Positions 40,950 through 55,809 of a stretch of DNA of 64,000 bases are shown here, piece by piece (position 1 is the stretch's first letter; every line of letters starts with the position of its first letter). The stretch is taken from assembly GCA_029856045.1 (NCBI GenBank), contig JAHQWG010000016.1, positions 32,001 through 96,000 on the forward strand. The letters run 5' to 3'. The notes beneath the pieces were generated by a model. That model saw nothing but the letters and a program-made list of their open reading frames with translations, had not been told where the DNA came from and ran no database searches. Both the position numbers and the translations under genes were made by a program. The DNA comes from Promethearchaeia archaeon (GTDB lineage: Archaea; Asgardarchaeota; Lokiarchaeia; Sigyniarchaeales; SOKP01).

Positions 40950-43900
40950 TTATTTTTTTAACTTCCAATATTTTTTCCCACTTTGAATATTAGCTAAGAC
41001 TTTATTTTCCCGTTCAAGCTGTTTAAGTTTAACTTGTAATAATCGGGCATCCATCATATCACTGATTCCTAATCTAAATATCAAGTGCTTAATTGATTGC
41101 CATTCTTCATTTAATATAGAGAAGATTTTTTCTGTTGTTATTACAGGTAATGATGTTTGTACAGTTTTCTTTATAGGTTTTTTAATAGGTGTTATTTTTG
41201 GGGGAGTTCCAAGTTTTTTAGCCATTGCTATGGGTTGAGAGGTTTTAGGTTTTGAAATTAATGGTTTTGTAATTAGTTTTTTAGGAGTGGAAGTTTTCTT
41301 TGGAATAGTGGTAGGAATTTTTCCTATAGATGTAGGAACCTTAGTTTTTATAGATGGTGTAATTATTTTTGCTGGTTGAGGTTTAGGAGAGATTTGAGGT
41401 GTTTTAATAGCAGGTTTCGGTATTTCCGATATAATTTTTGATGGAATTATTGGAGGTTTTTCAACTTTAGGTACTTCTGGCAATAACACCTTCTCTGGTT
41501 TTTCACCTATAGCACTACGCAATAGATTTTCTAATTCAACCTTTTTCAATTTATTTTTGTATTTATCTTCATTTTTTGCAATATTATAAAGAGAATTAAC
41601 AAAAATTGGAATAAATTTCAAAATTTTTTTCTCTCTATCCATACCTCTACGTATTTTTTCTCTTCTGTTTAAATAACTCTTAATCTGGAGACCAATTTTC
41701 TGTAGAGTTAATTTAATTTCGGTCATTAAAATTTCGTCTTCAGCCAACGCATTTTTTGACTGAGATTTAAACATAAGATGAACAAATGGACCAGAAACAT
41801 TTATTATTAATCTAAGAGGCCCTTTAGGCAAGCCGTTATCATAAACATCCAATCTGTAATTCTCCTTCCACTTGACGGATTGTGCTGCTTTCATTATAGC
41901 ACAATCTGCACTATCTCGCAATTTCGATGTGCGATTAACATATCTTAAAAGAATATCCCTAGGTAATTTTGGACTCTCTAATCCCTCTTTATAAGCTAAT
42001 GCAGCCTCAACCACAAATGCAAGACCTTTTCCACTCGTAGGTGATCTAGTTTCAGCTGCAACAAAATCTTTTGGCATCATTTCATTGATTTCTCTTTGAG
42101 TTTCATTTTCAGTGATACTTTGAAGATCAATTTTGGATTCATCAATATCTTCGAGATTAGTAGAAACGTTTAGATTATATTCGTCAATTAAAATGTTTTT
42201 TAATATAGTTGAGCTTATGGGTATTGCTGTATCGGTCGGGGGAGATAAGTATTTCATAGATTTAAAAGCTAGAAATAACTCATTAAATTGATCACTTGTT
42301 ATTTCAGCTGGTTTAGTTTTAGAAATTAAAACCTTTTTAATTAATTCTAAATTCTTTGTTCGAACTTCAGAAGATTTAAGTTCTGTAATTCCATCTTTAA
42401 TATTTTCAAATTTATCTTCTAATTTCTTTTTAATTTCAACTTTTTGCTTTTCCTTTCTATCAATTTCATTATTAAGGTTATTTATACTTTTTCTTATTAT
42501 ATTTTCTCGCTTCTTAGTAATTTTTTCTTTCTCAAATTCATTTTTCGTAGATTTTATTTTTTTCTGTATTCCTTTAATTTCTTTACATTCTTGATTGAAT
42601 TGTTCGATTAAATCCCAGTATGTTTTTTTTAGGTCCATATTTTCAATTTTATAGGTTATTAACTGGTCTCTTTTTTTTGTAGATTTTCCCCAGACTCTTG
42701 GTTCATAGCGCATTAAATGTATTGGAGAAGTCAATTTTGGGGCTCTATTAATATAAAATTTATCTACTACTAATAGGTTTAATTTCTCCTCCAATTGCTG
42801 TTCAGCTTTATTAGTTATAGTTTTTGCTATTTTTGAGCTCATTCTAACAAAACTGTCCTGTAGGAAGGAAGATATCGTTTTATGTTCAGATTTTGTAATA
42901 TAATCTTGAAAATCTCCAATATTTACAGAAGAGGGATGTGGTAACGCATATTTTGGTTCAGGCGGAAATTTATTAACCCTTCTGGAATAATTAAAGCTTT
43001 CATTATTCGGATCGATATATTTTATTGTAACATGAGGGTTCATAAGTGCTGTTTTTTTAATATATTCATCAACATAACGTGCTATATATTTAATATTCAA
43101 GTAATTCAATTTAATATAGGTTCCGTGAAGAAATGATGTTTCAATTTCTGTATGGGGTATTACATATTTCTTTTCATTTTTTGAAGTCGTAAAAAATTGA
43201 GAGGCTGTTGCATAAACATCAAACTGAGTTTTGGAAACAGCAATTATTGGTTCTCCTGTTGTATTTTGTGAATCACTAAATGCACTAGGAGCTCCAAATC
43301 CTTGACTACCTCTGGTTTGTTTTAATTTTACACTTTTACTTGATGCTAAGTAGATACCGAATTTTCTTAAATCAGAACGATTCATTCCAGTTCCATTATC
43401 AAAGATTTCAAAGGTATATCTCATTATATTCTTTTTTCCTAATTCATCTGTTAAAACAGAAGGAGCTTCAGATTCTGTTAATTTAATAATTATAATTGGC
43501 TCATTATCTACAATATGCTCAAATGGTAAGAGCAACTTCTCCATATCATGAATTAAATTTTTTACTAACTTCTCTTTTTTCTTTTTATCTCTTTTTTCTG
43601 TAGGTTTTTCTTCAGTGAGCATAATTTTTTTTGGACTTGTTTCTGTTTTTAATTCCGCTTCTGAAGTTTTATAACTTTCTCCATTAATTTCCAATATTAG
43701 ATCTTCATTTAATTTTGCTCCAAACTTAATAACATCAAAATCTTTATCTATAGTGAATTTGGTTTTTGATTCATTTTTTAATTGTTCCCATTGGAAAGAT
43801 TCGATCGCATCAATAGCATTATCCATGAATTCTGCTGCATATTGAACATGTTTCCAATGGCCAAACTCAAATCCAACTAATTGAGTTCTCTTTCTCATAA

Positions 43901-43967: not shown

Positions 43968-44252
43968 TTTAACTCTACCACAGAATGGGTGTTTTTTTTA
44001 TATATTTAAATTTAGTTGTATACTTATGATATATCTATATTATTAACTCTATAATTTGTTATCCGTATTAACTATTATATTGATCTACTTTACTACTTCT
44101 TTAATTTCTTTTTAATGTTTCAATTTTAATCAGAAATAATTCTAATATTTAAATCTTTTTCTTTAATTAAATTCAATTAAAAAAATGTGAATAACCCTAT
44201 TTAAAAATAAGGAGTTTATGTATTAACATCCAAAATAAAAGATATTGATTAA

Positions 44253-44753
44253 CTAAGAATTTTTTAATCTAAAGATTTCTAAGGAAACATCTATGATTTT
44301 TGATGCTACATATCGTTTTGTATTTAATGGAACGTGGGTAATATGTTTTTCTTTGTCAATAATAAAAACTTCATTTGTTTTGGTTCCGAACCCTCTTTCA
44401 TCACGTCCTACATCATTGGCGACTATTAAGTCCATATTTGATTTTAAAAGGCGTTTATAGGCTCTTTCGATAAGTTCCTTTTCTAAAACTTTCGTTTCAG
44501 CCTTAAAACCTACAATAAAAACGTTTTTATCCGTTTCTCTTGCTATATCAATAATTTTTGGAGTTAATCTTAATCCCAGTTTTAATTCTTCATTTTTATT
44601 CGAAGAGATTTTTCCTTCTAAGTATTGTTTTGGGGTATAATCACCAATTGCTGCTGCAGAAATGAAAAAATCATATTTATGTTTTGTTAATTCTTCTTTA
44701 GCCATATTTAAAAAATCATTTGTAGAAGTCGCTGGAACCATATCAATATATGC
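44253..44753 (-). pseudogene. coaBC: Orphaned 3' part of coaBC (C-terminal CoaB region), uninterrupted reading frame
   Basis: Aligns without gaps to the last 162 aa of 51767..53077 (117/162 identical by manual count). Homology extends to the A-Y-I codons and stops at 44753. Confidence 0.9.
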
Positions 44754-44934
44754 AGATTCGTCGATAAATTTGTTAAAATTGGAATAAACTCAAATTTAAC
44801 TGACAATACGGAACAAAATCGTATGAGAAATAATCTCTTAGATATGAAATTAAATAAAAAAAAAGTTGTTTTAATTTTTTTTGAGTTTTTGAACTTTTCT
44901 TCATTTAAATACTTTCAATATATTGGTAATAAAA

Positions 44935-45195
44935 ATGGCTAAATTAAATTTTAAATTTCTGAACATTATTGATATTTTTATTAATGATTTAGGTACTGCT
45001 TTAGGAGAATTTTGGGAGTTTATGAGATCAGTTCTCTCATTAAGTGGTCTCTTTGGAGCTGTATATTTCCTTATAATGATATTAATTGGAAAACACATAG
45101 GCGTAAAACCCCCTGTAAAAACATTGATAGTTTCAATAACATTACTGACAATTTTTGGGCCAGACTATGGTCTGAGGTATTTTAGAATAATATAG
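44935..45195 (+). CDS. Small two-TM membrane protein (pilin/CedA1-like topology)
   Basis: ATG at 44935 (ORF track starts at TTG 44923); amphipathic helix and two hydrophobic segments; first gene of the operon. Confidence 0.6.
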   Translation: MAKLNFKFLNIIDIFINDLGTALGEFWEFMRSVLSLSGLFGAVYFLIMILIGKHIGVKPPVKTLIVSITLLTIFGPDYGLRYFRII

Positions 45196-45242
45196 TAAGA
45201 AGTAGTAAAATGTAAGTTTAAAAATAAAAAGTGGTTTAAAAA

Positions 45243-48200
45243 ATGGTATATATGTTTGAAATGTTCTTCCAGATTTTGCTGCTATTAACATGTGTTTTTG
45301 GAATCTTTGTAATTCTTGGTTTATTATTTTCAAAAAAAAATAGAGGAAAAATTTTTAAAAAAGCATTGTATTTATGCATTCCTCTGTGTAGCCTACTCCT
45401 TTTATTTTGGAGTTTTTTCATACTAGAAACTAACATATATAGATCTTTCGATTCGTTTATTGTTCTTATCTTTGAACTGGAATTTTTAGGCATATTAATT
45501 TGTATTGTTGCATTGTATTTTAATCTTAAAAAACACCCCCGACCCCCAAATCTTATCTATATCCTTGCAGTTTTCATGATTTTTCTCTCTCACATAGTGC
45601 TCGCAGGTCTAATGGCAGATTTATTTCGCGGGACCGTTGTTTCGATCATAATTGCCCTAATTGTATTTTTATATAATGACTTTTTTAGAGGTAAATTTAA
45701 ATCAGTAATACATACTATTCAAATGAATTTAAGAACTCCATTTTTTATTAGGAGAACTAATTTTGAAAGCAAACTGCCTGTAATTAATTCTGAGTATTTA
45801 CCGTGTGATTATGAAATGGATAATGCTAGTGACATAAACGAGAAAGATAATGAAGGAATAAAAACCAAAAAAATGAGGAGAGTAAAATTCTGGCATGCAG
45901 TCGTTGTGATAACCCAACCTCCAATCAATGATCAATTTAATAACAGAAATTGGGAAAAAACATGGCTTAAAAATTTTTTTAATAAGAAATCTTCATATGC
46001 TCTTAGACTTAAAATCCATAATAAGCTTCAATGGGAATTTTTTATGAATGTTCGTAATAGGTTTGGGGCAATAAGAGCAGGTAAAGCAATTCTCACAGAA
46101 TTAAAGCATATTTACCAAGGATTGGATGGAATAATTAAAGTAGTTCCAATCACCTCAGATGATCTTTATCAAAAAAGAATATTTTATGAAATTTTCCTTC
46201 CAAAACCGCCATTTATGAATAAAATTTTATTCATCGAAAAAGCAATAAAAATTTTTGATCAGACTCAGAATGAAATCGAGATATATATCTTATGGAAAGA
46301 AGCTCATCCCTATAAACGCGAAAAAATCCGATTAAAAATTAATGATATGATCTATGAGGACAATTATACTAAAAATAAAATTTTTGAGATGTGGACAGCG
46401 GTTCCGTTTAAGATTAGGATTTTTATTGCATCTAAGGTCCATTCGGAAGACCCTAATGAAATAGAAGAGCAAGAAGCGGACCTTCAAGGGATATTAAAAA
46501 CACTATTAATGGATATTAAAAACGAAAAAAAACGGGCACATTTTAAAAGAACCTCATCTGGAACGTATATCGACATCTTAAAGATAAATCATTATAAAGG
46601 CAGGGTAATCACCCATAAAGTGATAGATTTCGATTTCCCGAAAAATATTCCGTTATTAAAAGCACCAATATTATCAGTTGAAAATATTAAGGATAAATCT
46701 GTTTCAATTAATGATAAAAATCATATTGCCCTAGGATTGCAATACCACGTGGGAGTCTTAACAAAAAATATTGGATATGTACATATAGATGCTTTTGCTT
46801 CAAGCTGCTTTATAGGCGGGCTTTCTGGTACCGGAAAAACTTACTTGATTCTTTGGATTATCAAGGAATTGGCATCTAAACACTCTGAAGTAGGAATTTT
46901 GAATATTAACATTAGTAAAGAAAATCAACAGGAGTTATATGAAAAAGGTTTTAACGTAATTAAGTACGGTGATCCGGAATTTAAAGTTCCTTATTATGTT
47001 AAAGGGTCAAATCCAGATCAAACGCGTCAAGAAACATCATCAATTTTAGCAGCAAGTTTAGGATTAAATAATGTAGTTATTAATCTGCTTTTAAATGTAA
47101 TGCAACAATATGATGAGCAATTAGGAGATCAACCCGAATCACTGATGGTATTATTTAATACACTCATAATTTTCATGGAAAAAAACCCATATCACGAGAA
47201 ACTTCAAACAAATCTATTACGAGCAATTAAAAATCGAATAATGCCGCTCTTAGCCGGTAAAACATTTCATGATACAGTAATATACACCCAAAAGATACCA
47301 AAATGGTTTGTTGATTGGCAAAATGGAGAAAATGTTTTCCTTGATTTAAGCATGTGTAATGAATTTCAGAAACGATTATTAATCATGCTAGTCCTTCAAA
47401 TGGTTAGAACTTTAACTCCAAAAGGAGAAGCAGGTAAATTAACAAATCTAATCATAATTGATGAGTCTAAAAACATAGTTCGAAAACCAACTAACAATAA
47501 CCCATATGATTATGATTTCATTTCAAAGGAACAATTAGAGGAGATATTTATCAAATTAGTTTCAGAATTTCGAGCATTGGGAGTAGGATTTCTTTTTGCA
47601 GACCAATATCCTTCGTTATTATTTCCTTGTGTAGTAAAAGTAAGCCTTCAAATAATCTTTCGCGTTAAATACCCTTGCAATACTATCTTCACCGAAAATT
47701 ATGGCGATAGAGATTTATTACCAAATTTAAAAAACCGTGTAGCGTTGGTAATGAATGGTATTGAGAGTGAAAATTTTCTAATACAAACGCCGGACTATGC
47801 ACCTCCTAAGCAACCACAAGTTAATTTAACTTCTTCACAAGCTTTTCAGTCAAAACCTGAAAAGAAAAAACAAGAAAGACTTACTTTACTCGAAAAAATA
47901 TTTGAAAACCCGAATTGTCTAGTTCTAATGGACATAAAAGTTGATATAAAATTAAATAATTACTTCAAAGAGAAAATTAAGAAACTTGAAAAGAAAAAAA
48001 AAATAAAAGAACTTTATTGCCTAAAATATGCCATTTTTTATTATCAACTTAGAAAAAAAGTGGAACGAGCGCTTAGTCCAAATATTGAAAGGAATATTGA
48101 TCTCTATGGTTATATTTATTCTTTAACACAATTTTTATATCAAAGAGGATGGGAATTAGACCTTAAAATATATGATGATTTCATGTCATTTGGTTCCTTG

Positions 48201-48341
48201 CATGATTATTTCTTATTAAATAAGCCGGGAATAGAACATGAGATTAAGCGGTTAAATCACTCCTTTATGGCATTATATAACGAAATTTGTCCTATAATAA
48301 AACCGTTTGAACAGGATCAAAAAGATAAAGCGGTGATTTAA
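45243..48341 (+). CDS. Membrane-anchored HerA/VirB4/FtsK-superfamily ATPase
   Basis: 4-5 N-terminal TM helices, Walker A GLSGTGKT, Walker B LIIIDE, and FRALGVGFLFADQYPS matching the R..G.....tQ.Ps motif. Confidence 0.82.
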   Translation: MVYMFEMFFQILLLLTCVFGIFVILGLLFSKKNRGKIFKKALYLCIPLCSLLLLFWSFFILETNIYRSFDSFIVLIFELEFLGILICIVALYFNLKKHPRPPNLIYILAVFMIFLSHIVLAGLMADLFRGTVVSIIIALIVFLYNDFFRGKFKSVIHTIQMNLRTPFFIRRTNFESKLPVINSEYLPCDYEMDNASDINEKDNEGIKTKKMRRVKFWHAVVVITQPPINDQFNNRNWEKTWLKNFFNKKSSYALRLKIHNKLQWEFFMNVRNRFGAIRAGKAILTELKHIYQGLDGIIKVVPITSDDLYQKRIFYEIFLPKPPFMNKILFIEKAIKIFDQTQNEIEIYILWKEAHPYKREKIRLKINDMIYEDNYTKNKIFEMWTAVPFKIRIFIASKVHSEDPNEIEEQEADLQGILKTLLMDIKNEKKRAHFKRTSSGTYIDILKINHYKGRVITHKVIDFDFPKNIPLLKAPILSVENIKDKSVSINDKNHIALGLQYHVGVLTKNIGYVHIDAFASSCFIGGLSGTGKTYLILWIIKELASKHSEVGILNINISKENQQELYEKGFNVIKYGDPEFKVPYYVKGSNPDQTRQETSSILAASLGLNNVVINLLLNVMQQYDEQLGDQPESLMVLFNTLIIFMEKNPYHEKLQTNLLRAIKNRIMPLLAGKTFHDTVIYTQKIPKWFVDWQNGENVFLDLSMCNEFQKRLLIMLVLQMVRTLTPKGEAGKLTNLIIIDESKNIVRKPTNNNPYDYDFISKEQLEEIFIKLVSEFRALGVGFLFADQYPSLLFPCVVKVSLQIIFRVKYPCNTIFTENYGDRDLLPNLKNRVALVMNGIESENFLIQTPDYAPPKQPQVNLTSSQAFQSKPEKKKQERLTLLEKIFENPNCLVLMDIKVDIKLNNYFKEKIKKLEKKKKIKELYCLKYAIFYYQLRKKVERALSPNIERNIDLYGYIYSLTQFLYQRGWELDLKIYDDFMSFGSLHDYFLLNKPGIEHEIKRLNHSFMALYNEICPIIKPFEQDQKDKAVI

Positions 48342-48342
48342 A

Positions 48343-51300
48343 ATGGTTGAAGGCGAAAGTGGTGGAGATGCAAGTCGAGACACAAGCGGAGATACAAGTG
48401 GAGATGCAGGAGAAGATACAGAAGGAGATAGTGAAGTAGATTATGAGGAAGGTCGCACAAAGGAAGAAGTAGAAGGTTATGATTCTCAGCAAGAATCTGA
48501 AGAAACAGAGAGTGTTCACAGTGAAGCTGAAGAATCTCCTACAATCGAAGATGAATTAAAAGAGATAGAAGAAGAACCTATTCAAGATGAGCTTCCAATG
48601 AGTGAAAATGATATAGAAAATCCAGATGATTTACTATCTGATGATGATCTTCCCATGAGAGGAGAAGATTTAAAGGATTCTGAAGAGAATTTAGATCTCC
48701 AAGAACTTCCCCAAACATTTGATGAAGTAGAAAAAGCAATTAAGGAAAGTGAGGAGCGACTTGACCTTACTGAGGTCCCCCAAACCTTCGATGAGGTTGA
48801 AAAAGCACTTAAGGAAAGTAAGGAACGACTTGACCTTTCAGAGATTCCTCAAACCTTCGATGAGGTTGAAAAAGCACTTAAGGAGAGTGAAGAGCGACTT
48901 GACCTTACTGAGGTCCCCCAAACATTCGATGAGGTTGAAAAAGCACTTAAAGAGAGTGAAGAGCGACTTAACCTTTCTGAAGTTCCTAAATCAATAGATG
49001 AATTAAACGCGTTAGAAGATTACCAAAACAAGAATATTGTTAAAAATTCAATTCGCAACATAATGCGAATGAGTCCAGAACAGCGGGAAAGTCATGGATT
49101 GCCTAGAGAATATACAAACCATGAGTTGGATATATTTTTTGCGCAAATTGATACTACTGCGACTTTAGATAGCAATAATGCCAAACCAAGTGAAGTTAGT
49201 AATCCAGAAGGCTCAGGACCATTTTCTCGTAATGGTTCATTTGATGGAAAATCTGAGGGTTTAAAAAAGGAAAGTGTAAATAAAATTATAGATAAAGAAA
49301 TGACATCAGATTCAGATATTAAACAAAAAGAAACATCATCTACTCTCAATAAAGATATAGAAAAGAGTTCTATTGATAATTATAAAAGCAAACTTGCTAA
49401 TATTGATTGGAAAAGACAATATCTACAAACAAAAAAAGGCATGGAGGAAACAAGTAATGAAAAATCGGAATTTGATATAAATAATTTAGAGAAAATTGAA
49501 AACACATTAGACTCGAAAAAAATAGAATTAGCTACTATTAATGACAAAATAAAAAAAGATAATAAAGATTTGAAAGAATGGGAAAAACTAAAAAAAGAAA
49601 AAAAAGAAGAAGGAAAATCAAAGAAAAAAATAGAGGAATTAAATAAAGAAAACTTAAAAAATAAATCTGAATCGGAAATTGAACAATTAAACATTATTTC
49701 TGGAAAAAATAGAAATGACACTTCTGAAGATTTATTAAAGAATGATTTGTCAATTTTTGCAACAAAAAGATCTTGGAAAGATTGGACATACGAAATGTTA
49801 TTGGAAGAATTTACAAAAATATGTTATAAACTAGGAGTTAAAGATGGTTTTGCACCAACTAAAACCCAGATTGAAAATATCGAATATCGCTATATTATGA
49901 GTGGAATAACATCTTTACGGAAAATGTATAAGAAAAAAGGAATAGATAAAAAAATTAATTATTCGACATTAGTAAAGGACGCAGGATTTAATATAAAACA
50001 TGATATATATAAATACTCGAATATTAGAACTTTAAAAGAAGCGGCGGAGAAATTAATGTCCATAAAAGATAAATTAGGAATTTTACGGGAACGACCACCA
50101 ACAAGAGCCGAATTAGAAGATGGAGGATACTCTGGTTTTTTAAATATGTTTCGCAATAAAAAATTTACATATAACGATGCTGTGAGAGCAGCAGGTTTAA
50201 TTCCAAATTACGACTCTCAAAAATGGATGTGGCTGGATAAAGGTGATACTCTATATTTAGCGAGTAATTATTTTAAAAAGATATATGAGCAAAAATTGAA
50301 GAATTTACTAGATTTAGAGAACAATAAAGCTCCTAGAAGTGGCGATTTGATTGAATACGGGCCAAAAGGATTTTATTACGCTGTTGTTGATCGAGGATTC
50401 ACTTATAATGAGTTGGTTAGAGCAGCTAGCTTATATCCAAATGTAGAACCTTTTAAATGGGGTAATACTTTCAATATTGTTGATGCTAAGGATTATTTAA
50501 TGAAACTAATTAATTCAGGTGCTTTAGATCATTTGGAATTATCAGAGGGAGAATCTCCTACCATTCAACAGCTTAAAAATAGTAATAATGATTTTGTTCA
50601 AAAATTTTCGAAGCAAGGAATAAAATACAACGATATATTACGATTAACGGGATTACAACCTAATCATGAGCCTTATAAATATTACAATTATAAGATTTCT
50701 GATTTCATAGGTCTTTTTAAAGAGATAATGGATACTAATGAAATTAAAGATTTAAATTTAGGTGTTAGAGAAGCACCTACATTAAGACAATTATATGAGT
50801 TGGGATTTGGTTTTTTTCCTAGTGCGATACAAAAGAAGGAGATTAATTATAACGAGATATTAAGAAAATCTGGATATGACATTAATCATGAAATTCGTAA
50901 ATATGAGGGATATTCAAATAATGATTTCAAACAAGAGGTAAAGAAAATAATTCTTGGCTCTTTTCTTAGAGATGAATTAAATCTTACAACTAAGGAAGCC
51001 CCTACTATAAAACAACTAATAAATCTGGGCTATGGAGATATAATTCATCAACTGATTGATCGAAAAATAAGTTATAACGATGTTGTTAAAGATGCTGATT
51101 TAGTCCCTAATATGTTCCAGACTAGTCAAGAGATAGGGAAAATACTTCACCCAATCCTAGAATACTTTTTTATGATCCATACAATTTCAAAAAATATTAA
51201 TTCTTATTTCGAAATAAGACCTAGTATTTTAGATAATCGGAAGCAATGCGACATTACGATACTATATCCTGAAACTTATTACATTGCCCCTTCAAAAAAT

Positions 51301-51732
51301 ATTAAAATGATAAATATCGACTATACTATGTCTTCAGATAGCGAGTTACTTCTTGACAAATGTTTTCGAGGTTATCAAGGAAAACATAAAAAATTAATTA
51401 TAGTACCTTTATACATGCCGAAAAATTATATTAAGATGACTAAATCTAAGCTACACTCTTTTAGCATACCTTTTATGGAAAAAGTTGATATCTTAACTTC
51501 TCAAGAATTTCTTAATCTTTTCTCATTTCCTGATAATATTAGAGATAAATTTTTCTATTACTTAAGATTAGCAAAGGATTCGTTTGATGACGAAGCATTA
51601 TACAATCAACTTGAGAGAGATTCCCTTAAGGCCAAAAATATTTTAAAAACTAAATTTAAAGCAAGACAACAAAACGGGTTTGAAAAATTTCTTAGAGAAA
51701 GAGGAGATTACTCTCTTTTAAAACAAGGATAA
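48343..51732 (+). CDS. Large modular protein: acidic repeats, six ~75-aa repeats, putative PD-(D/E)xK-like nuclease domain
   Basis: Starts 1 bp after the ATPase stop with GGTGA upstream. Repeats are visible directly; the C-terminus reads G..LH..LE...FE...CDITI...INIDYT. Confidence 0.7.
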   Translation: MVEGESGGDASRDTSGDTSGDAGEDTEGDSEVDYEEGRTKEEVEGYDSQQESEETESVHSEAEESPTIEDELKEIEEEPIQDELPMSENDIENPDDLLSDDDLPMRGEDLKDSEENLDLQELPQTFDEVEKAIKESEERLDLTEVPQTFDEVEKALKESKERLDLSEIPQTFDEVEKALKESEERLDLTEVPQTFDEVEKALKESEERLNLSEVPKSIDELNALEDYQNKNIVKNSIRNIMRMSPEQRESHGLPREYTNHELDIFFAQIDTTATLDSNNAKPSEVSNPEGSGPFSRNGSFDGKSEGLKKESVNKIIDKEMTSDSDIKQKETSSTLNKDIEKSSIDNYKSKLANIDWKRQYLQTKKGMEETSNEKSEFDINNLEKIENTLDSKKIELATINDKIKKDNKDLKEWEKLKKEKKEEGKSKKKIEELNKENLKNKSESEIEQLNIISGKNRNDTSEDLLKNDLSIFATKRSWKDWTYEMLLEEFTKICYKLGVKDGFAPTKTQIENIEYRYIMSGITSLRKMYKKKGIDKKINYSTLVKDAGFNIKHDIYKYSNIRTLKEAAEKLMSIKDKLGILRERPPTRAELEDGGYSGFLNMFRNKKFTYNDAVRAAGLIPNYDSQKWMWLDKGDTLYLASNYFKKIYEQKLKNLLDLENNKAPRSGDLIEYGPKGFYYAVVDRGFTYNELVRAASLYPNVEPFKWGNTFNIVDAKDYLMKLINSGALDHLELSEGESPTIQQLKNSNNDFVQKFSKQGIKYNDILRLTGLQPNHEPYKYYNYKISDFIGLFKEIMDTNEIKDLNLGVREAPTLRQLYELGFGFFPSAIQKKEINYNEILRKSGYDINHEIRKYEGYSNNDFKQEVKKIILGSFLRDELNLTTKEAPTIKQLINLGYGDIIHQLIDRKISYNDVVKDADLVPNMFQTSQEIGKILHPILEYFFMIHTISKNINSYFEIRPSILDNRKQCDITILYPETYYIAPSKNIKMINIDYTMSSDSELLLDKCFRGYQGKHKKLIIVPLYMPKNYIKMTKSKLHSFSIPFMEKVDILTSQEFLNLFSFPDNIRDKFFYYLRLAKDSFDDEALYNQLERDSLKAKNILKTKFKARQQNGFEKFLRERGDYSLLKQG
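48682..49002 (+). repeat. 69-bp (23-aa) coding tandem repeat, ~4.6 copies
   Basis: Units start at 48682, 48751, 48820, 48889 and 48958; consensus EERLDLTEVPQTFDEVEKALKES. Confidence 0.93.
49771..51111 (+). repeat. Six diverged ~75-aa protein repeats
   Basis: Each unit reads ..L.L....aPt..ql...g...f.......YN..(v/l)r.ag..pN...K(W/Y). Confidence 0.85.
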
Positions 51733-51766
51733 AGTAGTATTATTTTATATTTTTTAAAAATTTTAA

Positions 51767-53077
51767 TTAATAATTTTTTATTCTGAAGTTTTCAATAGCA
51801 ACGTCAATTATCTTCGATGCTACATATCGTTTCGTATTTAATTCAACATGTGTAATATTTTTTTCTTTATCAATAATATAAACTTCATTCGTCTTGGACA
51901 CAAAACCTCTTTCCTTAAGTCCTACATCATTTGCTACAATTAAATCGACATCAGATTTTATTAAACGCTGATAAGCTCTTTCGATGAGTTCTTCTTTTGA
52001 AACCTTAGTTTCAGCCTTAAAAGCTACAATAAAAACATTTTTATCTGTTTCTCTTGCTATATCAATGATTTTAGGAGTTAACTTTAAATTAAGAATAAGT
52101 TCTTTACGCTCATCAGTCGATATCTTTCCTTTAAGACGTCGAATCGGTGTATAATCACTAATAGCTGCAGCCGATATGAAAAAATCATAACTATTTTTCG
52201 ACAATTCTTCTTTTACCACATTCAAGAAATCTTCAGTTGTGATAACAGATCTCGTTTCTATATATGCCGGAACCTTAGTTGTACCTTGACCATATACCAA
52301 TAAAACATCTCCTCCTCTAACCTTTACTTCTTTAGCTAGTTCAATTCCTTGACGACCTGAAGACCAATTCGTTAAATATCTCACCGTATCAAGCGGTTCT
52401 TTACTAGGACCAGCTGTTATAAGAAATTTTTTTCCTTCTAATTCTTTTACCGGGTGGACTAAATCAATCACTCTTTGGATGATATCATCAACTCTTGCAA
52501 TTTTAGCCTTACCTTCAGAGATTCTTGGACCTAAGATATCAACCCCTAGTCGTTTTAATTTAAGAATATTTTTCTCTAAAATTGGGTGATTGAACATACT
52601 CTCATGCATTGCGGGAACAATAATTATAGGAATCTGAGTTCCAAAAGCTGTGGTCACGACTGTAGTAACAGCTGTATCGTCAATTCCAGTAGCTATCTTT
52701 GAAATCGTATTTGCTGTCGCAGGACATACTAAAATAAGATCTGCTTTTCCTAACTTTTTTGGTCGTTCTCCTGCTAAATAGATATGTTCAACATTGCCTG
52801 TTAATTTTGTTATTGCTGGATTTCCGGTAGCCCAGTGCATTAGATCGGGACCAAGTAATTTTGTGGCAGCTCTAGTCATAACACATACCACCTCAGCACC
52901 AAGTCGCATTAATTCCCGGGAAATTATTGGAGCTTGAATTATCGCAACACTACCAGTGACACACAAGCAGATTGTTTTTCCTCTTAAAATTGTTCCCTTA
53001 GATTCTAAAATTTCCTTAGAGGGATGATCTTTATTCATATTAATCAAACTCTTAAATATGTACTTTTTTAAATTCAA
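51767..53077 (-). CDS. coaBC: Bifunctional phosphopantothenoylcysteine decarboxylase / phosphopantothenate--cysteine ligase
   Basis: VTGSVA, EHI, PATANTISK, PAMHESM, ITAGP...D.VRYLTN.SSG, AAISDY, FKAE, VANDV. The probable start is ATG 53038. Confidence 0.95.
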   Translation of the reverse strand: MNLKKYIFKSLINMNKDHPSKEILESKGTILRGKTICLCVTGSVAIIQAPIISRELMRLGAEVVCVMTRAATKLLGPDLMHWATGNPAITKLTGNVEHIYLAGERPKKLGKADLILVCPATANTISKIATGIDDTAVTTVVTTAFGTQIPIIIVPAMHESMFNHPILEKNILKLKRLGVDILGPRISEGKAKIARVDDIIQRVIDLVHPVKELEGKKFLITAGPSKEPLDTVRYLTNWSSGRQGIELAKEVKVRGGDVLLVYGQGTTKVPAYIETRSVITTEDFLNVVKEELSKNSYDFFISAAAISDYTPIRRLKGKISTDERKELILNLKLTPKIIDIARETDKNVFIVAFKAETKVSKEELIERAYQRLIKSDVDLIVANDVGLKERGFVSKTNEVYIIDKEKNITHVELNTKRYVASKIIDVAIENFRIKNY

Positions 53078-53325: not shown

Positions 53326-55809
53326 TTGGATATAATAGAAAATCAGAAAATTAGAATTCTTCTCGATATAAACGATGAAATTTCTTCTCAAAAAATTGAA
53401 ATAAGAGATGGAAATAAATATATTCCTGTTATCGGGAGTTCAGAATCGTTGGGTACTTTACTCTTCATATTTAAAAATTGCTTATATTCTAAGCCGTTGA
53501 TACTCAAAAAAAAGTCTGAAAGTAATTTAATCTTAAATTATGAAGATTCTATATTATCAATCCTTTTAGAAATTACAATTGAAAATGATGATTTAATTCA
53601 TTTTAAATATACAATAAAATTTAATCATAAATTAAAATTAACAAAACTTATTTCAAATTATGATATATTATTAGGAAATAATCCAGATTATACTTGGGTT
53701 CCTCATATTCGTCCAAAAGAAAATTATGTTATGGCAGATCATATTTTTCGCTCTCCTGCTGTAATATATAATAAAGGGAAATATTCTTTTTCATTAATTC
53801 CAGATTTAGATATCCTTGCTAAAAATAGACATTTCCAGACTATATTAGATTTAAATTTAAAGAATAAAGAATATACGGACTTTCCTCAACTATATTTTGG
53901 CTTCGGAAATTATAAAGCCGTTGAACATATTCTATTTCGTCACAATCCAAAGAAACATATGAAAATAAAAGCGGATTCAAATTTAATTTTTGGATACTAT
54001 GTGAAATTATTTAATGACTCACCTATTAATGATGTTTTAGCATATATTAATTCATTTTTATGGGAGAAATATGGAAAAAAAAGATTATATGCTGATTGTA
54101 AACCACAAGTATTATCATATGACACCTTTGTTGAGGAAGGTTTTAAAGCAATTTTTAAACGCCATAATTATTGGGGAAATTTTCAAATTGATAATATAGA
54201 ATGCGGAGGTGTTTTTCTTAGATCTTGGATGGGCTCCAAAAAAAAGCCACTTAAATATATAAAACCAGAAAAATTTGAAAAATATAAAAAAACAAGTTCA
54301 ATAGAATTATCTGGTCAAAGTAAACTTATCAATAGAATAATTTCAAGGTTTTCAAATAGTCCCTTTTGGATTAAAAGATTTGATAATTTCACGCGTCATC
54401 ATGCAATTATTACAAGAAACGCAGAGATACGAAATAATGCTTGGTTTTTAAATGTTCGGACTGGTTATGGTTTTAGATATTTTGCGAAATTATGGAATGA
54501 TCAATTTCTTAAAGATAAGGGAAATAGAACATTAAATACGGTATTAAATCTTCCTCGAATTAGAGGAGTATTTCCAAGTGTTATTTTACCAGAGAAAGAA
54601 AACGCAGTAAATTTTTCTACAATAAATGGGTTAAAAGCCTTTATCTTCACTGATGATTTTCACATAGTTGATATTTGTCTAGCTATTTACTGGGCAATCA
54701 AATTTTTTGAAGATTTTGGTGAAGTTAATGGAATTAAAGAAAAATGCAAGGAACTTTTTGATCTAATAGAAGAAGTTCAATTAGATAATGGTGCAATCCC
54801 CACATACATAGGTTTCAAAGAGGATAATAAGACACCGATTATTAGAGATACATTAATAAATTCGGCAAGTACAGGGGCACCATTGATGTTTCTAACAGAA
54901 TATTATAAAATTTCTAGAGATAAAAGAATCATTCCAATTGCTGAAAAATGTGCAAAATATATTCAAACTGAAATTATTCCTCAAGATAAATGGCATGATT
55001 ATGAACCTTTCTTTAGTTGCACACATTTACCTTTTGATATATATGATGATTTTACAAAATCTCATGTCATAAATACTTTGTCAATATATTGGAGCGCAGA
55101 AGGATTAAAAGAATTATATAAAATCACTAAGAACAAGGATTATTTAATATTAGGAGAAAGAGTTTTATCCGTTCTATCATTATTTCAACAAGTATGGGAC
55201 ATTCCTTACATCAGTTATAATACATTTGGAGGTTTTGGAGTGCAAAATGCAGATGCTGAATTGAGTGATGCGAGACAAGGTCTCTTTGTCCGGACGTATA
55301 TGGAGTATTATTTAGAAACAGGAAAAAAAGAATATATGGAAAGAGGAATCGCGACATTAAGAGCTTGTTTTGCTTTAATGCTTTTAAGAGAACTTAAAGA
55401 ACAATGTCCAGGTAACTTAAAAGGAATCGAAACGCTTGATGGTATTGATAGAGGATGTATCTGTGAAAATTATGGCCATTCAGGAAATGATCTACGAATT
55501 CCTGGATATATAATGTTTGATTGGGGAGTAGGTACATCTGCTTCAGCTTCTGCATATATAAAAAAACACTTTGGTGATTTATTCATTGATTTTAAAGAAA
55601 ATATTGCATGGGGGATTGATGGATTAATCGTGAGAACATTTGAATACAAGGATGATAAAATTTTCATAAAATTTGATAAAATTGAAGATAAAAAAGATAT
55701 TCTTGTAAAAGCGAGGGATCCTCCAAAAGAAAAACTAGAAATTTTTATAAATGACAAATCACTTGGGTTAAGAAGTAAAAAAGATTTAGAAGAAGGGTTC
55801 ATATTTTAA
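53326..55809 (+). CDS. Hypothetical protein, probable (alpha/alpha)6-barrel glycoside hydrolase-like
   Basis: 827 aa; repeated ELY..T....YL / EYY.ETG..EY.ERG helices, Q.DNG, ENYGH. Confidence 0.5.
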   Translation: MDIIENQKIRILLDINDEISSQKIEIRDGNKYIPVIGSSESLGTLLFIFKNCLYSKPLILKKKSESNLILNYEDSILSILLEITIENDDLIHFKYTIKFNHKLKLTKLISNYDILLGNNPDYTWVPHIRPKENYVMADHIFRSPAVIYNKGKYSFSLIPDLDILAKNRHFQTILDLNLKNKEYTDFPQLYFGFGNYKAVEHILFRHNPKKHMKIKADSNLIFGYYVKLFNDSPINDVLAYINSFLWEKYGKKRLYADCKPQVLSYDTFVEEGFKAIFKRHNYWGNFQIDNIECGGVFLRSWMGSKKKPLKYIKPEKFEKYKKTSSIELSGQSKLINRIISRFSNSPFWIKRFDNFTRHHAIITRNAEIRNNAWFLNVRTGYGFRYFAKLWNDQFLKDKGNRTLNTVLNLPRIRGVFPSVILPEKENAVNFSTINGLKAFIFTDDFHIVDICLAIYWAIKFFEDFGEVNGIKEKCKELFDLIEEVQLDNGAIPTYIGFKEDNKTPIIRDTLINSASTGAPLMFLTEYYKISRDKRIIPIAEKCAKYIQTEIIPQDKWHDYEPFFSCTHLPFDIYDDFTKSHVINTLSIYWSAEGLKELYKITKNKDYLILGERVLSVLSLFQQVWDIPYISYNTFGGFGVQNADAELSDARQGLFVRTYMEYYLETGKKEYMERGIATLRACFALMLLRELKEQCPGNLKGIETLDGIDRGCICENYGHSGNDLRIPGYIMFDWGVGTSASASAYIKKHFGDLFIDFKENIAWGIDGLIVRTFEYKDDKIFIKFDKIEDKKDILVKARDPPKEKLEIFINDKSLGLRSKKDLEEGFIF

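Follow-up and report, generated by a model that had tools for sequence, protein, structure and literature searches.

Why should a chromosome hold the end of one gene twice, once in its place and once stranded beyond a cargo of other genes? The question is raised by coaBC, an essential gene for coenzyme A, of a Promethearchaeia archaeon of the Asgard (Loki) group, in a 64,000-nucleotide (nt) stretch of contig JAHQWG010000016.1 (positions 32,001 to 96,000; hereafter the window), where the intact gene and a second copy of its 3′ end flank a three-gene insert. The intact gene is chimeric, the native end lies stranded beyond the insert, and native gene nt 672-808 have been lost. The explanation that we favour, and consider probable though by no means certain, is a homing element that replaces the 3′ end of its host gene, the core of which consists of a repeat-plus-PD-(D/E)XK nuclease gene and the adjacent, diverged coaBC 3′ end.

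A chimeric coaBC and its stranded end

The 3′ end of coaBC is present twice, ungapped and at an offset of 7514 bp (44253-44753 and 51767-52267), as a preliminary description of the window had reported, with 117 of 162 residues identical. The 162-codon frame at 44253-44741 on the minus strand aligns with the intact coaBC at 51767-53077 on the same strand. The two copies share 75.1% nt identity, and their codons divide into 72 identical, 45 synonymous, and 45 non-synonymous ones (dN/dS = 0.14). Between them lie three open reading frames (ORFs) of 86-90, 1032, and 1129 amino acids (aa) on the plus strand, also as described before. A contig from run X7 bridges the fragment junction (44102-44939), and a contig from run X2 bridges the cargo/coaBC and the host/foreign junctions (51450-52484), each with 0 differences. 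Because contigs from two independent studies span the junctions in this way, a chimera of the assembly is ruled out.

Empty sites, in which a single coaBC stands directly before top6B, exist in the same-genus genomes G001, G002, and G004 and in the same-species contigs L224-L226 and L228, and run X15 carries the native empty allele. The identity of the intact coaBC to L224/L228 is 98.7% for nt 40-671, 64.7% for nt 672-810, and 75.5% for nt 811-1311; the stranded fragment is 98.4-99.4% identical to the same alleles at the nt level and clusters with them in the 3′ tree. The 5′ and 3′ trees of the intact gene disagree: the 5′ part is placed with its own species, and the 3′ part falls elsewhere, on a long separate branch inside a wider genus-level clade. 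A duplication in situ was rejected, since the tree that holds the foreign 3′ part together with the fragment has a p-AU of 1.4e-7. Because the displaced fragment is native and the 3′ part of the intact gene is foreign, the intact CoaBC is a host/foreign chimera, which bears out the earlier proposal. Sequence comparison supports the view that a mobile insertion supplied the replacement 3′ end.

The host 5′ part of coaBC occupies 52428-53077 on the minus strand. It is followed by a crossover interval at 52407-52427 (minus strand; gene nt 651-671), located by the change point at nt 671 and by site painting, in conserved F-L-I-T-A-G-P codons. The foreign replacement end extends over 51767-52406 (minus strand; gene nt 672-1311) and comprises nearly the entire CoaB domain. 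The change from host to foreign sequence at nt 671/672 (window 52406) lies 139 nt upstream of an 8-mer that is common to both copies, and the crossover is placed within nt 651-672. The displaced native end (44253-44755, minus strand; gene nt 809-1311), the frame of which is still open, begins at nt 809, and native nt 672-808 are absent from the genome, so that 137 bp of host DNA were replaced by 7651 bp of new DNA. The left junction sits in the conserved FLITAGP codons and the right junction is without evident homology. The foreign nt 672-808 (52270-52406, minus strand), the native counterpart of which is missing, are most diverged at nt 672-734 and would be a candidate cleavage-resistant site.

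The 8-mer, ATATATGC (44746-44753 and 52260-52267), had been taken both as the end of pairwise homology and as the recombination point. The former stands; the latter does not hold for the intact gene, where the 8-mer marks the start of the stranded fragment rather than a recombination core. It is one of 18 identical runs of at least 8 nt between the copies and encodes a conserved Ala-Tyr-Ile. Within the foreign tract, a 46-bp patch (window 52299-52344, gene nt 735-779) is 93% host-like and is flanked by strongly diverged parts; given this patch, the foreign coaBC allele may itself be mosaic.

The same foreign tract was found in two other alleles, P0002 and P0003, where it begins at nt 672-674 and is 96-100% identical to the window. 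The 5′ parts of these alleles are only 91% like that of the window and group with G002/G004. They revert to native sequence at nt 1246-1265 and nt 1135-1142 and continue into native spacer with no cargo; these tracts would be conversion tracts or pop-outs between two coaBC copies. At nt 601-660, P0002 agrees with the window's own species, so that a single origin of the left boundary followed by spread fits as well as independent acquisitions. In a change-point scan of 180 CoaBC proteins, the window case was by far the strongest and one weaker pair appeared near codon 216; repeated replacement at coaBC is therefore unsupported. The coaBC of L119 showed no clear recoded patch against its nearest relative.

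Other irregularities of coaBC and its surroundings were observed. Genome G018 (C331) contains a frameshifted coaBC 3′ fragment (L057:9240-9703) far from its intact coaBC, with no nuclease recognised nearby. Assemblies break inside coaBC in G020 (L055/L056, codons 268-291, with a 77-bp overlap) and in G025 (L058/L059, codons 311-359), possibly at polymorphic insertions. The top6B gene (window 40950-43898, minus strand), which follows coaBC directly at empty sites and lies downstream of the stranded fragment in the window, encodes a 982-aa protein that has large insertions and a tail rich in Pro/Lys. An 827-aa gene upstream of coaBC (window 53326-55809) is kept in the same-species contigs, and only a 3′ remnant of it is left in G002 and G004.

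The nuclease gene and the ATPase module

The preliminary description had left mobilisation unexplained. No integrase was found in the insert with Pfam and NCBIfam, as had been stated, and the only PF00589 tyrosine recombinase of the genome is located on another contig, C8. The 1129-aa protein, however, ends in a predicted PD-(D/E)XK-fold nuclease that belongs to a coaBC-linked clade. Three parts can be distinguished in this gene, all on the plus strand. The N-terminal part (48343-49779) is acidic, contains five 69-bp repeats at 48633-49046, and is common to module copies that end in other nucleases. The middle part (49780-51111) consists of approximately six units of 70-80 aa that are helical in the model and form a candidate DNA-recognition array. 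The last part (51112-51732) is the nuclease domain, with conserved G932, H936, E940, E957, D970, D993, K1006, and Y1011 (alignment A2).

The predicted structure of residues 480-1129 (mean pLDDT 92.6) shows the approximately six helical repeats followed by an alpha/beta domain. A fold search with this model returned almost exclusively restriction-nuclease-like PD-(D/E)XK structures at Z 5-7. The best were AF1548 (Z 7.1, root-mean-square deviation (rmsd) 3.9, 134 residues aligned) and Can2 (Z 7.0, rmsd 3.2, 120 aligned), and Bse634I, BglII, and NucC were also among them. The model thus contains the core alpha/beta fold of the superfamily, with middling Z-scores and matches that agree with one another. 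Among 62 homologues, G932, H936, E940, E957, D970, D993, and Y1011 are at least 90% conserved and K1006 stands in the consensus; the window copy has all of them, and the predicted fold accordingly carries a conserved acidic core. Searches of NCBIfam, of PADLOC, and of PDB sequences assigned the nuclease to no family, and Foldseek with the nuclease model gave nothing at E<=0.001. The repeat array resembles PF18780 (HNH_repeat) by an Atlas feature match of 0.92 with 158 shared features, and hmmscan gave no match.

The other two genes of the insert belong to a different unit. A small hydrophobic protein of 86-90 aa (44923-45195, plus strand), with a hydrophobic stretch at residues 32-57, is 79-80% identical to the module copies in L066 and G002 and has no Pfam or NCBIfam match. 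It precedes a 1032-aa membrane-anchored P-loop ATPase of the HerA/VirB4/TrwB-like (DUF87) type (45243-48341, plus strand). The N-terminal 150 aa of this protein are hydrophobic, and the assignment comes from Atlas DUF87/HerA_C clusters (0.97-0.98) and weak PADLOC HerA matches. An ATPase copy 92% identical at the nt level lies at an unrelated site in L067, where it takes the place of an intergenic spacer and no duplication of the target was seen; a further close copy is on the short contig L066. Fuller modules (L066/G002) also contain a membrane gene of 110 aa and an M50-like peptidase, both missing in the window. The left end of the insert (44756-44922, plus strand) shows weak similarity to the beginning of the 110-aa gene when aligned locally to L066 and L054, and is probably its remnant. 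The ATPase and the small membrane gene are a partly decayed module, and the nuclease is fused to the last gene of this module. Because only 5 of the 45 nuclease loci carry the ATPase, it is dispensable for the layout. No ATPase match was found in viral contigs with the patterns used, and the small hydrophobic ORFs of the window had no channel or pilin (VirB2/VirB6-like) family match in the Pfam/NCBIfam scans.

In the last gene of the module, the acidic N-terminus is constant and the C-terminus is variable. The C-terminus is GIY-YIG (with a weak LAGLIDADG) in L066, an intein with LAGLIDADG in L060, and HNH-like by motifs read by eye in L067; module genes of L237 and L246 have the repeat-plus-PD-(D/E)XK end. 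Eight further module-linked proteins have no Pfam nuclease above the cut-off (one has a weak GIY-YIG), and two of them match the repeat-plus-nuclease profile. Genes with the acidic N-terminus and differing homing-nuclease ends lie in or near the ATPase module at L066:5907-8417, L067:5206-7629, L060:12517-14643, and L062:3083-5077, and the L060 gene is convergent with an nrdD-like gene. In G001 (C7; L063:8899-14581), an ATPase module has a convergent 196-aa gene on one side and, on the other, a copy of the last 58 residues of that gene at 60% identity, which is the same layout with an unfamiliar nuclease type. Two genera have GIY-YIG-like genes that are flanked by a thermosome gene on one side and the ATPase on the other (L241:4077-5915, L242:4397-6229). 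In the window's own genome, G000, a second pair of membrane genes, of 110 aa and 85 aa, stands alone (C35; L065:9286-9901), adjoining a RadA-like gene.

Distribution of the nuclease family

Members of the nuclease family were found in 34 of the 134 genomes of the host's family and in a Helarchaeota genome. The closest relatives of the window copy are P0138 (58%) and P0136 (49%), with most others near 30%, and both are convergent to a coaBC 3′ end in other Lokiarchaeia genera, one of them with a displaced fragment of its own. L151 shows the full layout without the ATPase: top6B, a stranded coaBC end, the nuclease, and the intact-side coaBC end. Its stranded fragment and top6B have the same nearest relative, and the nuclease-side coaBC end scores best to another genus. 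The tree of 42 nuclease proteins groups by chromosomal site and not by host genus, with clades for coaBC (99/99), hisS (100/99), the pyrH region (100/99), a 185-aa gene (97/94), and hypA (92/96); the helicase-linked nucleases L157 and L168, which are long, mis-trimmed rows of the tree, were left out of the counts. These data show that the nuclease clade has been linked to coaBC over the long term.

Related layouts occur at other genes. A GalT-like gene of the Helarchaeota genome shows the layout (76%), but its nearest relative is only 59% identical, too distant to set the polarity. In G004, a DEAH helicase beside a family member has a foreign end of the last ~60 codons compared with G001/G002, and a 59-bp second copy of this foreign end is present; in the window, examination for nuclease/fragment clusters gave a single unit only. 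In G001 (C247; L220:2900-6519), a 3.2-kb insertion after the helicase holds the start of an SDR gene in duplicate, along with a remnant of the G004-type foreign helicase end. Literature searches, incomplete in their coverage, gave no description of the nuclease family or of the layout on Asgard chromosomes.

Probable homing and its rivals

Homing would begin when donor DNA meets an uninvaded allele and native coaBC is cleaved by the nuclease at about nt 660-810. The broken end on the upstream side would recombine with the donor at the conserved ITAGP codons, repair would copy the foreign, resistant 3′ end and the cargo into the host, and the downstream end would be trimmed to nt 809, stranding the old 3′ end. 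At a first invasion the downstream end would be rejoined with little or no homology, and in later rounds via the existing fragment. Repair tracts stopping inside coaBC, or later recombination between the copies, would give mosaic alleles free of cargo, such as P0002 and P0003. We infer the resistance of the foreign allele as well as the route of DNA entry.

Some elements with an integrase, such as e14 at icd and SXT at prfC, rebuild their target gene; they require a tyrosine recombinase and one shared core, and nothing is lost. The coaBC locus resembles them in having a replacement gene end and a displaced native end, but it lacks a recombinase, and 137 bp separate its two junctions (gene nt 672 and nt 809). 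The closest parallel is offered by the WHO elements of yeasts, described as a third, rare class of homing element (Osborne et al., bioRxiv 10.64898/2026.08.13.744650), which at FBA1 replace the gene's 3′ end, leave fragments of ~400-500 bp, and cleave allele-specifically (Coughlan et al. 2020, PMC7282813). Shared features are a free-standing nuclease gene downstream of an essential gene without splicing or an integrase, a chimeric intact gene with discordant 5′ and 3′ trees, a displaced 3′ fragment beyond the nuclease, and empty alleles in the same species; some WHO genes are also oppositely oriented. However, WHO proteins combine LAGLIDADG intein-like domains with zinc fingers and act in yeast nuclei, whereas the protein described here has helical repeats and a PD-(D/E)XK fold on an archaeal chromosome, and neither the LAGLIDADG intein-like domain nor the zinc finger of WHO/HO had a Pfam match in the insert proteins. 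Here, different clades reside at different genes, no tandem clusters were seen, 137 bp were lost, and the nuclease is fused to an ATPase module. Cleavage has been shown for WHO elements; here it is a prediction.

In fungal mitochondria, mORFs such as those of Allomyces macrogynus atp6 and Glomus atp6/atp9/cox2/nad3 (PMC3630166) likewise combine a foreign C-terminus fused in frame, an endonuclease ORF, and the native C-terminus downstream, with a native copy that matches close relatives. They are organellar, of the LAGLIDADG or GIY-YIG type, and usually co-transcribed, whereas the nuclease gene here is convergent and of the PD-(D/E)XK fold. The coaBC element works like WHO elements and mORFs but belongs to neither, and its nuclease is unrelated. 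Phage T4 has free-standing homing endonucleases (SegF/gene 56, SegG/gene 32) that promote intronless homing, with one-sided events and microhomology junctions, according to the relevant passages of a review (PMC2988022). As at coaBC, the nuclease gene lies hundreds of bp from the inferred target in a neighbouring gene, and this neighbour is co-converted; the T4 enzymes are of the GIY-YIG or HNH type and act in a phage, and the passages on T4 in that review describe no stranded gene end. The ATPase, known here from its sequence, is membrane-anchored and HerA/VirB4-like, as in HerA/VirB4/TrwB DNA-transfer systems (Ced/Ted, conjugative).

Several observations weigh against homing. The fold Z-scores are no higher than 5-7, the nuclease matches no Pfam family, the position of the canonical (D/E)XK lysine reads D-Y-T (after D993), with the conserved K1006 in the next helix, and cleavage of coaBC by the predicted nuclease is itself something that we infer. 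Of the 124 family genomes with a coaBC match, the element was seen at this gene in 1, a displaced 3′ copy is detectable at only 4 of the 45 nuclease loci, and the clustering by site could partly reflect vertical inheritance with loss. The stranded fragments start at different points (codon 271 in the window, ~370 in L151), and in the window 137 nt separate the crossover from the fragment start downstream, which differs from many FBA1 fragments. G000 also has at least seven partial 3′ duplications around metabolic cargo with no nuclease between (C8:14403-18337, C27:514204-517479, C27:520904-527035, C49:79828-86295, C49:37506-40821, C51:83927-87431, and C51:48180-51475).

Such nuclease-free duplications, common in G000, lend weight to the main rival of homing, a passive transfer by homology-facilitated illegitimate recombination. 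Chromosomal DNA of a related Lokiarchaeon would have recombined through the ITAGP patch at one end and been joined illegitimately to the host at nt 809 at the other, and the nuclease, cutting nothing, would be a passenger that had long neighboured the donor coaBC. One homologous and one nearly homology-free junction with a 137-bp loss is reportedly the outcome of this process (PMC6382021). We hold it to be rather unlikely, since it leaves unexplained the recurrence of the layout, together with an orthologous nuclease, at the coaBC of another genus, the sorting of family members by site, and the same foreign tract in a second host background; moreover, in the five G000 duplications that were tested (leuB, eIF2B-like, polB, aminotransferase, and cyclase), the intact 3′ end is not foreign but 90-99% identical to relatives. 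The constant acidic N-terminus and variable nuclease C-termini behind a membrane ATPase would also suit a polymorphic-toxin or defence cassette, in which the ATPase exports or partners a non-specific nuclease with a swappable C-terminus and the swap at coaBC follows incidentally from cassette exchange or from selection for a CoaB allele; the swapped part is approximately a whole domain under purifying selection. We think this improbable, as no candidate immunity gene follows the nuclease, most nuclease loci lack the ATPase, the alternative C-termini are of homing-endonuclease types, and PADLOC did not match the nuclease.

A decayed integrase element of the e14/SXT kind, which inserted site-specifically near nt 660-671 and from which a later deletion took the integrase and right attachment site along with native nt 672-808, would account for the sharp left boundary common to three alleles, and module genes (the 110-aa and M50-like genes of L066/G002) have indeed been lost here. 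It is a still more doubtful proposal: no integrase was recognised in the gene maps of nuclease and ATPase loci, which were inspected as maps without a profile scan, close module copies sit at unrelated sites without target duplication (L067), and the genome's sole tyrosine recombinase lies elsewhere. The preliminary description had envisaged a 7514-bp circle that carried a coaBC 3′ end and recombined at ATATATGC, where the pairwise homology of the two copies ends. Because the switch to foreign sequence occurs at nt 672 and 137 bp of host sequence were lost, no circle integrated at ATATATGC in this way; precise excision would leave the native allele unrestored, and the empty allele of X15 is native at that point. 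A circle joint was not seen in the contigs of four runs, although contigs drop rare forms, and we regard this origin as very improbable.

A wider version of homing, which we hold to be rather unlikely, would be a self-transmissible, integrase-free gene drive of Lokiarchaeia, in which the HerA/VirB4-like module moves chromosomal DNA between cells, swappable homing-nuclease ends (repeat plus PD-(D/E)XK, GIY-YIG, LAGLIDADG, HNH) pick the target gene, and the 70-80-aa repeats are modular DNA readers that retarget the nuclease.

Homing that replaces the 3′ end of a gene is already known from yeast and fungal mitochondria; the Asgard host and the nuclease family would be new, as would its recurrence at several Asgard genes. 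If true, an Asgard chromosome would follow the logic of WHO elements by means of a nuclease family that is unclassified and not related to theirs, which would be an independent convergence. The locus would offer natural sensitive and resistant coaBC alleles and a predicted long target site (native nt 660-810) for the nuclease, and a recognition code based on the repeats could emerge from clades that differ in target. It would also imply that two chromosomes of Lokiarchaeia, including those of different species, meet with sufficient frequency to let homing spread, and that gene trees can be misled by core genes of mosaic make-up.

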